Positions 47,378 to 60,501 of a stretch of 64,000 nt of DNA are shown piece after piece. The stretch lies in IMG/VR virus record IMGVR_UViG_2744054962_000001; one strand, written 5' to 3'. This DNA comes from a virus. Lineage: Duplodnaviria > Heunggongvirae > Uroviricota > Caudoviricetes. The position numbers and the translations under genes are program-made. Positions within the stretch are counted from its first letter, which is position 1; each line of letters opens with the position of its first letter. A model generated the notes under the pieces. The model was not told the DNA's origin, made no database searches, and saw only the letters and a list, made by a program, of their open reading frames with translations.

Positions 47378-47629
47378 ATGCTAGGCAGCCTGATGACAAA
47401 GCTAAAAGTTGCTTTGATTACGCTGGCTGCCGTTCTTTTCGTTCTTGTCGGCGCTTACACGATGGGCGGGAATGCGGCGCGACGAGCAATGGAAGAGAAG
47501 GCAAAACAGGAAGACAGAAAACGACTTCAAAACACAGTGAAAGTGGTGAATGAGACGAGCAGTAAAATACGTCAGAAAGATGCTTCTGCCGTTCATCGTG
47601 AGTTGTATGATAAGTGGGTGCGTCATTAA
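47378..47629 (+). CDS. i-spanin (Rz-like)
   Basis: N-terminal TM helix then charged coiled coil; o-spanin-like gene embedded in +1 frame. Confidence 0.6.
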   Translation: MLGSLMTKLKVALITLAAVLFVLVGAYTMGGNAARRAMEEKAKQEDRKRLQNTVKVVNETSSKIRQKDASAVHRELYDKWVRH

Positions 47630-47765
47630 ACCACAAACAGCCAGCGTGTTGTTCTGCGATGGGGCTGAGCCTATCTATATCAGCAATAATGATGTAATGA
47701 CTGAAGAAACCGAACGCCAAATCCTTTTTCACAATACGATGGGAGAGAGGGTTTGTGGTTGGTGA
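47550..47765 (+). CDS. o-spanin (Rz1-like lipoprotein)
   Basis: Lipobox ISGC after short hydrophobic leader (real start possibly ATG 47580); overlaps i-spanin 3' end. Confidence 0.55.
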   Translation: MRRAVKYVRKMLLPFIVSCMISGCVIKPQTASVLFCDGAEPIYISNNDVMTEETERQILFHNTMGERVCGW

Positions 47766-47772
47766 TGTCGAA

Positions 47773-47794
47773 GTTCCCCTCAAATGAGGGGAAC
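47773..47794. terminator. Bidirectional hairpin between lysis genes and toxin gene
   Basis: GTTCCCCTC-AAAT-GAGGGGAAC. Confidence 0.55.
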
Positions 47795-47797
47795 ACA

Positions 47798-48319
47798 TTA
47801 TTCTTCGAACAATTTTTCGATAGATTTTGTAGGATAGAACAAAGAACGCTCGTTGTTACCAACCAGCTGGATAAAGCCTAAACTTTTATAAAACGCCTTG
47901 GCTTTGTCATTTAACGCCTCAACGAAAAGTCCATGAATGCCTACAGCAAGAGATGCATTGTACACAACGCGCATTGCATGTGTTACAAGCATTGAGCCAA
48001 ATCCTTGACCTTGAAGGGACTTGTCCAAAGCCAGCCTACCCAAAGTAACACTTGGAACATTCCGATAAGGAACCTTCTTTTGTTTGCTTCTTGAAGGTAA
48101 GGACTCCTTTTCAAAACAACTACCTGACAAAGTGTAATATCCTAACACTTTTGGCCTTTCTTCTTGAGTGCAAAGCACATAAGCACGAAGAATTTTTCCC
48201 TCATGCTGCCTTTTTAAGTGGTTGGCTAAAAAGGCGTTTAGTGACTCTTCGCCGCAATCAAAACCGTTTAGATCATAATCTTTCTCTCCAGAGAAAATCT
48301 CTATCGTTGTATTGCTCAC
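47798..48319 (-). CDS. GNAT-family acetyltransferase toxin (TacT/AtaT-like)
   Basis: GNAT motif LQGQGFGSML; GTG start 7 nt after antitoxin stop. Confidence 0.75.
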   Translation of the reverse strand: MSNTTIEIFSGEKDYDLNGFDCGEESLNAFLANHLKRQHEGKILRAYVLCTQEERPKVLGYYTLSGSCFEKESLPSRSKQKKVPYRNVPSVTLGRLALDKSLQGQGFGSMLVTHAMRVVYNASLAVGIHGLFVEALNDKAKAFYKSLGFIQLVGNNERSLFYPTKSIEKLFEE

Positions 48320-48326
48320 GAGTAAA

Positions 48327-48596
48327 CTACTCCATGCTTTTCAGACGATCAGCAGCTCGTTTCAGCTTGTCGTTCGGTGCCGGAGGATTGCTTATAGCGT
48401 CCATAACCAGATTCCAGGATTCTTCATTCAGAACTAGTCTACGGTGTTGCTCTATAACTTTCACGGCACGTTCAGATGCACTGCTAACCATAAACTGAGT
48501 AATGCTCTGGTTAGACATTGCGGCAGCTTCCTCGATGATGCTTTTATCGTCATCGGTTAATCTCAAATCGATGCGCTGCTTTTTTAGTGCTGACAT
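48327..48596 (-). CDS. RHH antitoxin (DUF1778/TacA-like)
   Basis: 89 aa from ATG 48596 (AGGAGG RBS); immediately upstream of GNAT toxin. Confidence 0.7.
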   Translation of the reverse strand: MSALKKQRIDLRLTDDDKSIIEEAAAMSNQSITQFMVSSASERAVKVIEQHRRLVLNEESWNLVMDAISNPPAPNDKLKRAADRLKSME

Positions 48597-48864
48597 GTAT
48601 TCCTCCTGATGGCCGTGATGTAGGAAGGCCATCAATCTCCTCTGTTCAAACTGAGTTTTCGACTCAAAAATTACTTTAAAAGGCTATAGCCCATTACGTG
48701 TGCATTATCAAATTGTGTACGGCATATCACCGTACTTGTAATATAGAGGTCATTGTTACTTTTTTCAACAGACAAATACAAGCTATGATTGCCAATTGTT
48801 AATCACAACCTACCATTTAACCTTTACACCGCAGCCGTAGGCATTTAGGCTATATCACATATAA

Positions 48865-48879
48865 GAAAACAAGTTGTTT
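48865..48879. promoter_or_regulatory. Operator palindrome GAAAACAAGTTGTTT upstream of parA
   Basis: Perfect AAACAAGTTGTTT core 36 nt before parA ATG. Confidence 0.55.
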
Positions 48880-48914
48880 CAGACGATAATTATATACGCA
48901 AAGGGAACTCTCCA

Positions 48915-49583
48915 ATGACCAAGATCTTTGTGGTTGGCGGCACAAAGGGCGGGCCTGGCAAATCCACCGTTGCCCAGCAAATTGCCGTTTGCCTGAAAGT
49001 CAAAAAGAAGAAGAAGGTTTATATTACCGATATAGATATTCAGCGCACGACAACGAGCTGGTGTGAAGACCGTCGACAGAACGAAGACCTTGAGCTGATT
49101 CCTTTTGCATACGTTCAGGATGACATCATTAAGCACCTAAAATCGCTTCAGGGTAGAGCTGAGTTTGTAGTGGTAGATGCTGGTGGCTTCGACTCCGAAA
49201 TTCAGCGACAAGCGATGCTGATGGCTGACGTTATCATTATCCCGCTGCGTCCTAAGCGTCGTGATTTGAAATCTTTACGTGACATCGATCCTATTATCGA
49301 CAATGTTCGCAATGTAAACGATAAAGTGAAGGTCCGCGCGGTCATGAACCAGTGCCCGGCTTTGCCATCACAAGTGTCTCGCATTCTGGCGGCTAAAGAG
49401 ATTGTTGAGACGTTTGGAATCGAGTCTGCGCCAGTCAATCTATATAACCGCAACGTCTATGATGATGCGGAAGAGTCTGGTCGTTCTATCTTTGAAATGA
49501 CCGGTAGCGAGCGCGACAAAAAGGCGGAAGCCGAGTTTGAAGAATTTGTAGATTATCTGTTGAGTCTGGAGGAAGAAGAATAA
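48915..49583 (+). CDS. parA: ParA-family partition ATPase (small, type Ib-like)
   Basis: Deviant Walker A GGTKGGPGKST; 222 aa. Confidence 0.85.
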   Translation: MTKIFVVGGTKGGPGKSTVAQQIAVCLKVKKKKKVYITDIDIQRTTTSWCEDRRQNEDLELIPFAYVQDDIIKHLKSLQGRAEFVVVDAGGFDSEIQRQAMLMADVIIIPLRPKRRDLKSLRDIDPIIDNVRNVNDKVKVRAVMNQCPALPSQVSRILAAKEIVETFGIESAPVNLYNRNVYDDAEESGRSIFEMTGSERDKKAEAEFEEFVDYLLSLEEEE

Positions 49584-49942
49584 TGTCCATGAAAATGGGT
49601 GACCTAGCAAAGCGCAAAGAGCCTGATGCACCGGCTAAGAACACAACTCCTTTGCGCCAACCAGTCAGACCACAAGGACGCCCGACTCGTGGCAAAGAGA
49701 AAATTAAAAGCCGCACTATGTCACTGGAAGACGAATACTTCGAGCTTCTGGAAATGATGAAGTTTATCCCTCGTTTCGAGAAGTTCACCCGCTCTGATGT
49801 GATTCGTGCTGCTATTTTCCATCTGGCAGAGAAGTCACCGCAGGAAATCGAGGACATCGTAAAGCTGAACGAGGCGATCACAGCTGCCGATGTCACGATG
49901 CGTACCGATGAAATTAAACGCGAGTTGATGAAGAAAGGTTAA
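49583..49942 (+). CDS. Small partition partner protein (RHH/ParG-like, putative)
   Basis: TAATG overlap with parA; basic N-terminal tail then RHH-like segment. Confidence 0.5.
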   Translation: MSMKMGDLAKRKEPDAPAKNTTPLRQPVRPQGRPTRGKEKIKSRTMSLEDEYFELLEMMKFIPRFEKFTRSDVIRAAIFHLAEKSPQEIEDIVKLNEAITAADVTMRTDEIKRELMKKG

Positions 49943-60253: not shown

Positions 60254-60328
60254 GATGGTGTAGCTCAGCGGTAGAGCAGTTGGCTGTTAACCAACTGGTC
60301 GGTGGTTCGAATCCACCCACCATCGCCA
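60254..60328 (+). tRNA. tRNA-Asn (anticodon GTT)
   Basis: Cloverleaf: acceptor GATGGTG/CACCATC, D-arm GCTCAGCGGTAGAGC, anticodon loop CTGTTAA, T-loop TTCGAAT, encoded CCA. Confidence 0.85.
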
Positions 60329-60330
60329 AT

Positions 60331-60406
60331 GCCGGTTTAGCTCAGTTGGTAGAGCACCTGCCTTGTAAGCAGGATGTCAGCGGTTCGAATCCGTTAACCG
60401 GCACCA
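60331..60406 (+). tRNA. tRNA-Thr (anticodon TGT)
   Basis: Acceptor GCCGGTT/AACCGGC, anticodon stem CCTGC/GCAGG with loop CTTGTAA, T-loop TTCGAAT, encoded CCA. Confidence 0.85.
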
Positions 60407-60414
60407 ACACAATT

Positions 60415-60501
60415 GGAGAGTAGAGAGCATGGTGCTCAAGCGGTCTTGAAAGCCGTCCCATTGCGCAAGCGATGATGGTTCGATTCCATTACTCTCCGCC
60501 A
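60415..60501 (+). tRNA. tRNA-Ser (anticodon TGA), class II with long variable arm
   Basis: Acceptor GGAGAGT/ACTCTCC, anticodon loop CTTGAAA, variable arm with TTGCGCAA hairpin, T-loop TTCGATT, discriminator G plus CCA; anticodon stem has two G-U pairs. Confidence 0.65.

Follow-up and report, generated by a model that had tools for sequence, protein, structure and literature searches.

An AtaRT/KacAT-type toxin-antitoxin cassette beside parA in an SSU5-like phage-plasmid of Escherichia coli: genetic map, operator, mRNA leader and probable role

The window analysed here, a stretch of 64,000 nucleotides (IMG/VR record IMGVR_UViG_2744054962_000001), shares 97–99% identity with SSU5-like phage-plasmids and belongs to such an element of E. 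coli. It carries a pair of genes that, in identity and in class of biochemistry, is almost certainly a type II toxin-antitoxin system of the AtaR-AtaT/KacA-KacT clade. The best overall explanation, which we regard as probable, is that the pair forms a functional operon carried as a cassette of ~1 kb and aids the maintenance of the phage-plasmid. The finding is already known, the same cassette being annotated in the published phage Cyrano, and is thus correct but ordinary; as stated it matters little, adding one more confirmed AtaRT/KacAT-type module. Useful to phage-plasmid work is rather the exact map of boundaries, terminator, promoter, operator and leader (Table 1), and the undescribed part is the mRNA leader, not the proteins.

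Both genes lie on the minus strand in a bicistronic layout, the antitoxin first and then, after a 7-nt gap (TTTACTC), the toxin. The original prediction had the gene order, the sizes of 89 and 173 aa, the gap and the GTG start right, leaving the strand unstated, and it had also placed the pair correctly between the lysis and partition modules, for PHROGs and Pfam identify endolysin, Rz and Rz1 upstream and a ParA-like ATPase downstream. The terminator-like hairpin that separates the toxin from Rz1 lies inside the cassette and may act as a bidirectional terminator. A longer antitoxin of 101 or 102 aa (ATG 48632 or TTG 48635), as in the Cyrano annotation, was rejected, since the extension is unconserved and contains stop codons in the Citrobacter allele, and both KacA and AtaR begin at the MSALKKQR-type position, with a good Shine-Dalgarno sequence.

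Table 1. Positions, in window coordinates, of the cassette, its regulatory features and its immediate neighbours
Feature	Position	Strand	Details
Complete toxin-antitoxin cassette	47767..48807	-	Variable cargo slot, from the Rz1 stop codon to the conserved parA promoter region
Rz1-like spanin	47646..47765	+	Left neighbour, end of lysis module; PHROG 1275, E 7e-17; Cyrano annotation
G+C-rich hairpin GTTCCCCTCAAATGAGGGGAAC	47773..47794	.	Terminator-like (terminator scan); between convergent Rz1 and toxin genes
Toxin gene	47798..48319	-	GTG start, 173 aa; GNAT, AtaT/KacT orthologue
Antitoxin gene	48327..48596	-	ATG start, 89 aa; RHH, DUF1778/TacA family, AtaR/KacA orthologue
Antitoxin Shine-Dalgarno GGAGG	48602..48606	-	5 nt before ATG; read from sequence
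Leader hairpin 3, TGATGGCC-N12-GGCCATCA	48607..48634	-	3' arm abuts Shine-Dalgarno
Leader hairpin 2, GAGTcgaaaACTC	48653..48665	-	2–3 pairs with compensatory changes
Leader hairpin 1, GGGCtatAGCC	48682..48692	-	Comparison of leaders between loci
Operator palindrome GTACGG-N7-CCGTAC	48717..48735	-	Predicted site of antitoxin-toxin complex; KacAT operator match
Sigma-70 promoter	48740..48768	-	-35 TTGAAA 48768..48763, 17-nt spacer, -10 TATATT 48745..48740; scan score 10/12
ParA-like partition ATPase	48915..49583	+	Right neighbour, divergent from cassette; Pfam MipZ/AAA_31/CbiA; PHROG 164

The assignment of the two proteins rests on profiles, structural homologues and individual residues. The antitoxin matches PF08681 (TacA1/DUF1778) over residues 8–86 (E 5.7e-26; 90.7 bits, cutoff 21), and the toxin, which belongs to the acetyltransferase family PHROG 1758, exceeds the gathering scores of the GNAT families Acetyltransf_7, Acetyltransf_1, Acetyltransf_10 and FR47, so that the proposed search for GNAT and DUF1778 profiles turned out positive for both. 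Among proteins in the PDB the toxin is matched by AtaT (6GTS/6AJM, E 1.4e-79, residues 1–172) and KacT (5ZGN_C, E 3.9e-75), and the antitoxin by KacA (5ZGN_A, E 6.6e-42) and AtaR (6AJM_C, E 1.3e-40). Profile and PDB matches alike greatly exceed what chance would give. A search of both against NCBIfam returned only sub-threshold matches, to RimI with the toxin and to MobA and RelB with the antitoxin, and no AtaT/AtaR equivalog. With PMC7595197 as the source for the residues by which AtaT performs catalysis or contacts acetyl-CoA or tRNA, the toxin has the acetyl-CoA motif QGQGFG at residues 103–108, of the form Q/R-x-x-G-x-G/A and with G108 kept, as well as a tyrosine, Y144, in register with AtaT Y144 and KacT Y145, for which a catalytic role is described (PMC7595197, PMC6698736). 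It also shares F30, H34, R37, P84, L27, L136 and K165 with AtaT, and the contacts of AtaT to the tRNA acceptor stem are identical at S76, S78, K79, K81, K82, Y85 and R95, K77 being replaced by R. Likewise, the antitoxin keeps the DNA-contact residues R8, D10 and R12 (as defined for KacA in PMC6698736) and, in the aligned sequences, the toxin-contact positions M65 and I68 of KacA. Taken together with the family-specific operator considered below, these matches bear out the earlier assignment to a TacT/AtaT-type GNAT toxin with a DUF1778 RHH antitoxin.

Both genes are probably functional, as judged from three observations: dN/dS between phage-plasmid alleles is 0.035–0.065, implying strong purifying selection on both; the toxin is full-length in 49 of 49 IMG/VR loci; and the identical cassette is transcribed in LF82 lysogens 35-fold (toxin) and 60-fold (antitoxin) over the local background (PMC9928086). 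The mechanism attributed to the pair in the following is transferred wholly from homologues with 70–80% identity, and for the toxin, at 70% identity to AtaT, the activity expected by analogy is acetylation of tRNA.

The control region reads TTGAAA-17-TATATT-4-GTACGG-N7-CCGTAC, a layout of -35 element, 17 nt, -10 element, 4 nt and operator that is conserved across the family, and the sigma-70 start site would fall inside the operator. Half-sites and spacing are both identical to what is seen in the KacAT operator DNA of the crystal structure, AAATGTACGGTTATTAACCGTACATGA (27 bp; PMC6698736), and 85 of 88 related loci keep the palindrome without a mismatch, its spacer being variable. Autoregulation of the operon through this operator, to which binding is predicted, is therefore very probable. 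Homology predicts a hexamer of four antitoxin and two toxin molecules, in which the toxin would be blocked and which would occupy the operator, such that the operon is repressed. Moreover, translation of the antitoxin would begin at an ATG behind a strong Shine-Dalgarno sequence and that of the toxin, 7 nt further on, at a weak GTG, so that antitoxin should be in excess.

Between promoter and antitoxin lies a leader of ~120 nt with three covarying hairpins, the last of which abuts the Shine-Dalgarno sequence. In 76% of 51 distinct leaders a hairpin, built from many different stem sequences, precedes the Shine-Dalgarno sequence at a distance of 0–2 nt, and a stem-loop in this adjacent position occurs in most operons of the AtaR/KacA family, the exceptions including its two studied members, E. 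coli ataRT and K. pneumoniae kacAT. It is comparison between loci, and only this, that makes the case for structure in the leader. Its folding stability in the window (z = -0.48 against dinucleotide shuffles) lends no support when taken by itself; an Rfam scan of positions 47600–49000 gave matches all far below the gathering scores and no cis-regulatory family; and RNAalifold, run on the leaders just as MAFFT had aligned them, returned a near-empty consensus of -1.47 kcal/mol, because in hairpin 3 the group to which the window belongs is displaced by a single column. The structure was consequently derived from folds of single sequences, a hand-given structure and a covariance model, which repaired the register only in part. 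When the hairpins adjacent to the Shine-Dalgarno sequence are folded in both orientations, 15 of 24 are more stable in the sense strand (-266 versus -249 kcal/mol), a bias too weak to prove that the element acts at the level of RNA rather than DNA.

We found no description of a DUF1778 leader RNA in the literature. Tentatively, the leader may be a conserved element of post-transcriptional control, for example a 5' end protected from processing or a switch of Shine-Dalgarno accessibility; the loop of hairpin 3, CUUCC, is pyrimidine-rich and could also pair with the Shine-Dalgarno sequence GGAGG. If true, such control would set the synthesis of antitoxin, and hence the toxin:antitoxin ratio, beyond what is achieved by the operator, and a functional hairpin at this position would add a post-transcriptional layer to the model of GNAT/RHH regulation.

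How then could such an operon serve the element that carries it? The prophage is low-copy and is not integrated, for which reason post-segregational killing or growth arrest would be the most likely selective role. The free toxin, again by homology, would transfer an acetyl group from acetyl-CoA to the amino group of charged tRNAs (for AtaT, Met-tRNAfMet and the Gly, Trp, Tyr and Phe tRNAs) and so stop translation, and cells that lose the phage-plasmid would be killed or arrested in growth, complementing the adjacent ParA partition system. Consistent with this, carriage is extrachromosomal and low-copy, with plasmids the only location in the complete E. coli genomes that have the cassette and ~5.5 copies of Cyrano per cell (PMC9928086). 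There are also precedents by analogy: GmvAT, a GNAT/RHH system, stabilises the Shigella plasmid pINV in a Lon-dependent manner (PMC6519299), and the SSU5 supercommunity is known to include toxin-antitoxin systems among its shell genes, with phd/doc stabilising P1 (PMC7969092). On these grounds we lean, with some reserve, towards plasmid stabilisation through post-segregational killing. Two observations temper the contribution of the cassette: SSU5 and many relatives do without it, and it is thus dispensable for maintenance of the element, and Cyrano also carries HicAB (PMC9928086), so that any stabilising effect may be redundant.

The distribution of the cassette bears on this question. The 991-bp sequence is 100% identical in pLF82 (phage Cyrano), for which the published table lists the identical genes as "KacT toxin / putative antitoxin" (PMC9928086), and among 5426 complete E. 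coli genomes the cassette occurs in 152, always on a plasmid, nearly always one of 105–115 kb, and never on the chromosome. In the alignment with SSU5 and PhiR41_1 homology stops at ~47766 and restarts at 48808, the slot in those two elements holding two unrelated plus-strand ORFs; the cassette is likewise missing from many other relatives, which have other genes in its place. The junction between Rz1 and parA is thus a slot for the exchange of cargo, with varied GNAT/RHH alleles in some elements and unrelated genes in SSU5. Where the system is present in Escherichia, Enterobacter and Citrobacter phage-plasmids, its alleles differ and its position and orientation beside parA are fixed, a recurrence which suggests long-term retention in the slot and not random hitch-hiking. 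On the far side of parA, a 119-aa gene is listed as a RelE/ParE toxin in the Cyrano annotation. This label is unsupported, the protein having no Pfam match and no sequence match in the PDB; its single-sequence AlphaFold model is mostly helical (mean pLDDT 67), a Foldseek search of the PDB with this model returned no hit better than E 3.8 and no positive assignment, and in PADLOC it has only a marginal match to HEC-02B (E 0.006).

Since defence genes of prophages often sit in variable cargo slots of temperate elements, such a location, together with expression of the cassette in lysogeny (PMC9928086) and the fact that several defence systems employ toxins aimed at tRNA (background: PMC12409363, PMC11559606), invites a reading as abortive infection or inter-element competition, in which infection by another phage or host shut-off would deplete a labile antitoxin and the freed toxin would arrest translation and abort the competitor, to the protection of the host population of the resident phage-plasmid. 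We consider this unlikely. No family in PADLOC-DB 2.0 matches the toxin or the antitoxin at E <= 0.01, the alternative cargo of the slot in SSU5 and PhiR41_1 is equally without a match there, as is ParA, and a DefenseFinder survey of SSU5-group phage-plasmids names AbiH, PrrC, PD-T4-3, PD-T7-5, RM and others, its text containing neither GNAT nor acetyltransferase. In the literature we found no report of a GNAT/RHH system conferring phage resistance. There is, in short, no support for a defence role of the cassette, and of the two functions offered in the original prediction, stabilisation of an episome appears better supported than defence.

A benefit to the lysogen, rather than to plasmid inheritance, could arise if the cassette acted as a moron on host physiology, by generating, through toxin activity that is stochastic or set off by stress, dormant cells tolerant of antibiotics or macrophages or by acetylating host proteins. 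KacT and other GNAT toxins have been linked to drug tolerance (PMC6698736, PMC9431474), AtaT is reported to acetylate EspB and so raise the virulence of EHEC (PMC7957018), and the identical cassette is among the expressed morons of the adherent-invasive strain LF82 (PMC9928086). However, bacteria carrying the cassette come from many sources, including chicken, pig, soil, water and human, and its strictly plasmid-borne carriage agrees with selection acting on the element rather than on a pathotype, which makes this reading improbable.

A further view would deny any help to maintenance, the cassette being either a selfish insert that is hard to lose or an anti-addiction module whose antitoxin neutralises chromosomal AtaT. 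Between phage-plasmid alleles the antitoxin is far more conserved than the toxin (87% versus 63% identity), and it is close to AtaR; chromosomal ataRT, with ~66% DNA identity to the cassette, is widespread (1626 chromosomal places in the 5426 genomes, ~30% of E. coli), and two loci of the AtaRT/KacAT family coexist in at least 71 genomes. The plasmid pTIC, moreover, has exchanged the toxin and most of the antitoxin for aac(6')-Ib-cr, keeping both its replicon and the terminator-like hairpin. Yet strong purifying selection acts on both genes, the toxin is always intact, and placement beside parA is fixed in three genera, and we hold this view to be distinctly improbable. Stabilisation of the phage-plasmid remains our preferred reading, with the proviso that, if a chromosomal antitoxin cross-neutralised the plasmid toxin, post-segregational killing would be defeated in hosts with ataRT. 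An allele confined to plasmids in a species of which ~30% has chromosomal ataRT makes such cross-talk, and anti-addiction, directly testable.

Of the known systems, AtaR-AtaT of E. coli O157:H7 (PDB 6GTS, 6AJM, 6AJN) resembles the present pair in the proteins, with 120 of 172 toxin residues (70%, full-length) and 67 of 88 antitoxin residues (76%) identical and G108, Y144 and most acceptor-stem contacts the same, as well as in gene order, a gap of 6–7 nt and the palindrome GTACGG-N7-CCGTAC 4 nt after the -10 box. It differs in being chromosomal, between panM and livJ, whereas the present pair is phage- and plasmid-borne; the genes are only ~66% identical as DNA, and the PGAP name for the present toxin is not ataT. 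The present toxin differs further at several tRNA-contact residues of AtaT (R40E, N41G, R71K, K77R and A26S), for which reason its tRNA targets may not be those of AtaT. From operator to ATG there are 139 nt with the three-hairpin leader in the present operon and 45 nt without such a leader in ataRT.

KacA-KacT of Klebsiella pneumoniae (PDB 5ZGN, 5XUN) is the closer relative on the antitoxin side (70 of 87 residues, 80%, with R8/D10/R12 and M65/I68 shared), its toxin matching with E 3.9e-75, and the operator has the half-sites and 7-bp spacer of the 27-bp crystal DNA. Unlike KacA, the present antitoxin carries Q70N and R77K, being AtaR-like at both positions; the leader of K. pneumoniae kacAT has 30 nt and lacks the hairpin adjacent to the Shine-Dalgarno sequence, and only for KacAT has conditional cooperativity been demonstrated. 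Salmonella TacA-TacT, to which we take PDB 5FVJ, 6G96 and 7AK7–7AK9 to belong, has the same Pfam families and architecture, and the antitoxin family in Pfam is named after TacA, but the relationship is only distant (toxin E 1e-11 to 1e-20, antitoxin E 1e-4 to 1e-13) and the clade is a different one.

The closest functional precedent is GmvA-GmvT of Shigella pINV, likewise a GNAT toxin with its antitoxin on a large low-copy plasmid with ParA (PMC6519299); the likeness drawn here is one of role, and GmvAT sits on a virulence plasmid, not a phage, and acts mainly at 21 °C. Phd-Doc of P1, finally, is a type II addiction module on a phage whose lysogenic form is a low-copy plasmid, and the role proposed is the same (PMC7969092), although the proteins and the chemistry of the toxins are unrelated, Doc being a Fic-family kinase. 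Phd-Doc is a persistent gene family of P1-like elements, whereas the present cassette is optional cargo in SSU5-like ones.

The original prediction of a small RHH antitoxin gene followed by a GNAT toxin gene was exact on the sequence in its coordinates, sizes, gap and start codon; the strand, which it had left unstated, is minus. The two ORFs are co-oriented, a 7-nt gap (TTTACTC) separating the TAG stop of the antitoxin from the toxin start. In the profile check for GNAT and DUF1778, PF08681 (TacA1, formerly DUF1778) covers antitoxin residues 8–86 (Pfam, E 5.7e-26) and four GNAT families score above their gathering cutoffs for the 173-aa protein. In comparison with solved structures, the toxin aligns over its full length with AtaT from E. 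coli O157:H7 (6GTS, 6AJM, 6AJN; E ~1e-79; 120/172 identical residues) and also matches K. pneumoniae KacT (5ZGN, 5XUN; E ~1e-75), while the antitoxin matches KacA (E 6.6e-42; 70/87) and AtaR (E 1.3e-40; 67/88). Further GNAT acetyltransferase and DUF1778 chains, some of which we take to be Salmonella TacAT, are distant matches only. The AtaT residues of demonstrated importance include G108 (acetyl-CoA binding) and Y144 (catalysis) (PMC7595197), both kept in the toxin, as are F30, H34, R37, S76, S78, K79, K81, K82, P84, Y85, R95, L27, L136 and K165; the changes are R40E, N41G, R71K, K77R and A26S. The DNA-contact residues R8, D10 and R12 of KacA (PMC6698736) and its toxin-contact residues M65 and I68 are likewise kept in the antitoxin, positions 70 and 77 being N and K, like AtaR. 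Comparison of phage-plasmid alleles gives a dN/dS of 0.035–0.065 for each gene, and a full-length toxin is found in 49/49 close IMG/VR loci. Pfam, the structure matches, residue conservation and the family operator thus support the interpretation as a toxin-antitoxin (TA) pair, which by its sequence belongs to the AtaRT/KacAT clade, with predicted catalytic, tRNA-, DNA- and toxin-binding residues intact.

Features of the TA cassette and the gene following parA (window coordinates)
Feature	Position	Strand	Remarks
TA cassette	47767–48807		terminator-like hairpin, toxin, antitoxin, leader, operator, promoter
Toxin ORF	48319..47798	-	173 aa, GTG start
Antitoxin ORF	48596..48327	-	89 aa, ATG start; CAGGAGGAATAC ahead of ATG
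Putative operator palindrome	48735..48717	-	GTACGGTGATATGCCGTAC; 4 nt downstream of -10
Putative promoter -10	48745..48740	-	TATATT
Putative promoter -35	48768..48763	-	TTGAAA, sigma-70-like; 17-nt spacer to -10
Gene after parA	49583-49942	+	119 aa; overlaps parA stop codon (ATGA)

The KacA4KacT2 hexamer was co-crystallised with AAATGTACGGTTATTAACCGTACATGA (PMC6698736), DNA whose half-sites are identical to those of the window palindrome and whose spacer is likewise 7 bp; the kacAT transcription start lies within the palindrome (PMC6698736). Exact GTACGG-N7-CCGTAC, with a freely varying spacer, occurs in 85 of 88 related loci (49 from IMG/VR, 39 from GTDB genomes) and also precedes both chromosomal ataRT and an IncF-plasmid allele; the arrangement TTGAA(A/T) – 17 nt – TAnnnT – 4 nt – operator repeats across genera. 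The predicted promoter and operator are therefore well supported by sequence, and the operator is probably the site bound by the complex.

The distance from operator start to ATG is 45 nt in E. coli ataRT, 49 nt in K. pneumoniae kacAT, 139 nt in the window and 140–350 nt in other phage-plasmid alleles. Eleven homologous, mutually related leaders of ~120 nt were compared: that of the window, those of three further phage-plasmid alleles and of two further IMG/VR contigs, and those of five chromosomal loci (Enterobacter soli, Huaxiibacter, Lelliottia, Salmonella, Morganella). When each is folded singly, three hairpins fall at matching alignment positions in all eleven; 77.5% of cells pair in the hand-given structure, as against 30–49% with partners slid by 1–3 columns, and both sides change in 7/20 pairs, compared with 2.0 ± 0.9 in shuffles (0/500 reaching the observed value). 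The covariance model built from them also recovers the IncF-plasmid allele (E 1.4e-8), and its 15-sequence alignment contains compensatory changes in 13/20 pairs, a count which model fitting biases towards structure. RNAalifold flags a conserved pairing of the hairpin-3 loop CUUC with the Shine-Dalgarno GGAG. Family-wide, 51 distinct leaders measure 36 nt or more, and 76% of these have a hairpin terminating 0–2 nt ahead of the Shine-Dalgarno (mean z-score -2.1), by eye with many differing stem sequences. The stability of the window leader itself is unremarkable (z = -0.48), the strand bias of the leader hairpins is weak, no Rfam family matches, and a literature search found no description of the leader. 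That the conserved structure is a functional leader RNA is plausible, a reading to which we give somewhat less than even weight; it might form a processed, hairpin-protected 5' end or control Shine-Dalgarno accessibility. The Enterobacter-type leaders (pEH4236, L004 2130-2330; IMG/VR loci L038-L050) contain tandem repeats, with units of ~7 nt (AAAACTG) and ~15–16 nt, whose copy number differs among plasmids, so that leader length ranges from 121 to 331 nt.

Over the 3 kb surrounding the pair, the window shares 97–99% identity with Escherichia phage Cyrano, with two phage records labelled "CMS-2020a" and with many ~110-kb E. coli plasmids; with Salmonella phage SSU5 it shares 84%, in the flanks only. 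Upstream lie endolysin, Rz and Rz1, and downstream a ParA-like ATPase (PHROGs and Pfam). Alignment to SSU5 and PhiR41_1 ends at ~47766, just past the Rz1 stop, and restarts at 48808, 107 bp before parA; between these points SSU5 (L002 2792-4240) and PhiR41_1 (L003 2782-4250) carry two unrelated plus-strand ORFs with their own terminator, assigned to the function-unknown PHROGs 2594 and 3307 and without a match in Pfam or PADLOC. The predicted TA unit thus forms a discrete cassette, ~1041 bp long, in a cargo-exchange slot at the junction of Rz1 and the parA promoter. The same slot holds, in the same orientation, a diverged GNAT/RHH pair in SSU5-like plasmids of Enterobacter hormaechei (pEH4236, L004 1312-2109) and Citrobacter freundii (L006 1289-2086), with toxins 63% and antitoxins 87% identical to those of the window (dN 0.33 versus 0.08); since the antitoxins are far better conserved than the toxins, alleles could cross-neutralise. 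The 107 bp before parA (48808-48914) are near-invariant among the window, PhiR41_1 and SSU5 despite differing cargo and presumably contain either the promoter/operator of parA or a site resembling a centromere; a search for repeats there detected none. The gene following parA is annotated in its Cyrano homologue as a putative RelE/ParE toxin, a label for which neither a Pfam/PDB sequence match nor a fold match was found (the model is largely helical, at low confidence); its position makes a small ParA partner, a candidate centromere-binding protein, more likely.

A 991-bp cassette sequence is shared at 100% identity by pLF82 (NC_011917; phage Cyrano) and many further plasmids. In PLSDB it is on 145 plasmids, nearly all of 105–115 kb and non-mobilisable, and 152 of 5426 complete E. 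coli genomes have it, every copy being plasmid-borne and none chromosomal. At lower stringency these genomes yield 1626 chromosomal ataRT places at ~66% DNA identity (on the O157:H7 chromosome, L008, between panM and livJ) and other alleles on ~147 further plasmids, the IncF-type allele (L009) adjoining a degraded vapBC and RepB. E. coli holds three co-existing populations of the family, namely chromosomal ataRT, the phage-plasmid allele and other plasmid alleles, and at least 71 genomes have two loci, which makes cross-talk or insulation between them a testable question. Each exact protein sequence is on at least 1000 generically named public-database contigs; of the phage genomes deposited, those with a close toxin homologue number only three, all of them SSU5-like E. 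coli records. In the otherwise near-identical pTIC (MF554642.1, L005 1299-2100), aac(6')-Ib-cr precisely replaces the equivalent of window 47801-48489, from just past the toxin stop as far as roughly antitoxin codon 36, leaving promoter, operator, leader and the first 36 antitoxin codons; as the stop codon is shared at the junction, the replacement may be natural or an engineered marker swap.

The system type is already known. pLF82 was re-annotated as Cyrano by Misson et al. 2023 (PMC9928086), with CYRAN_26 a "KacT acetyltransferase-type toxin" and CYRAN_27 a "putative antitoxin", both among the lysogen-expressed morons (35-fold and 60-fold over local background), and the SSU5 supercommunity has TA systems in its shell genome (Pfeifer et al. 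2021, PMC7969092), so that annotation has already captured the finding. A literature search found no functional test of the window's orthologue.

By homology, antitoxin and toxin would assemble as an A4T2 hexamer that represses through the operator and may share the conditional cooperativity of KacAT, and free toxin would acetylate aminoacyl-tRNAs. Ac-Asn-tRNA is among the species detected upon AtaT induction (PMC7595197); the window has three adjoining tRNA genes at 60254-60501 (+), Asn (GTT), Thr (TGT) and Ser (TGA). From its context beside ParA, the cassette may act by post-segregational killing, helping to retain a low-copy plasmid prophage; Cyrano makes virions and is present at ~5.5 copies per cell (PMC9928086). 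A strict need for it in maintenance is disfavoured, because many SSU5-like elements lack the cassette and Cyrano also carries HicAB (PMC9928086). The cassette could alternatively serve abortive-infection defence, but PADLOC, defence-survey and literature searches gave this no positive support; host physiology or persistence, or a purely selfish or anti-addiction insert, are further candidate roles. For the proposed plasmid-stabilising role, a precedent is provided by GmvAT, which keeps the Shigella plasmid pINV stable in a Lon-dependent manner (PMC6519299), and a functional analogue by Phd/Doc of P1 (PMC7969092).
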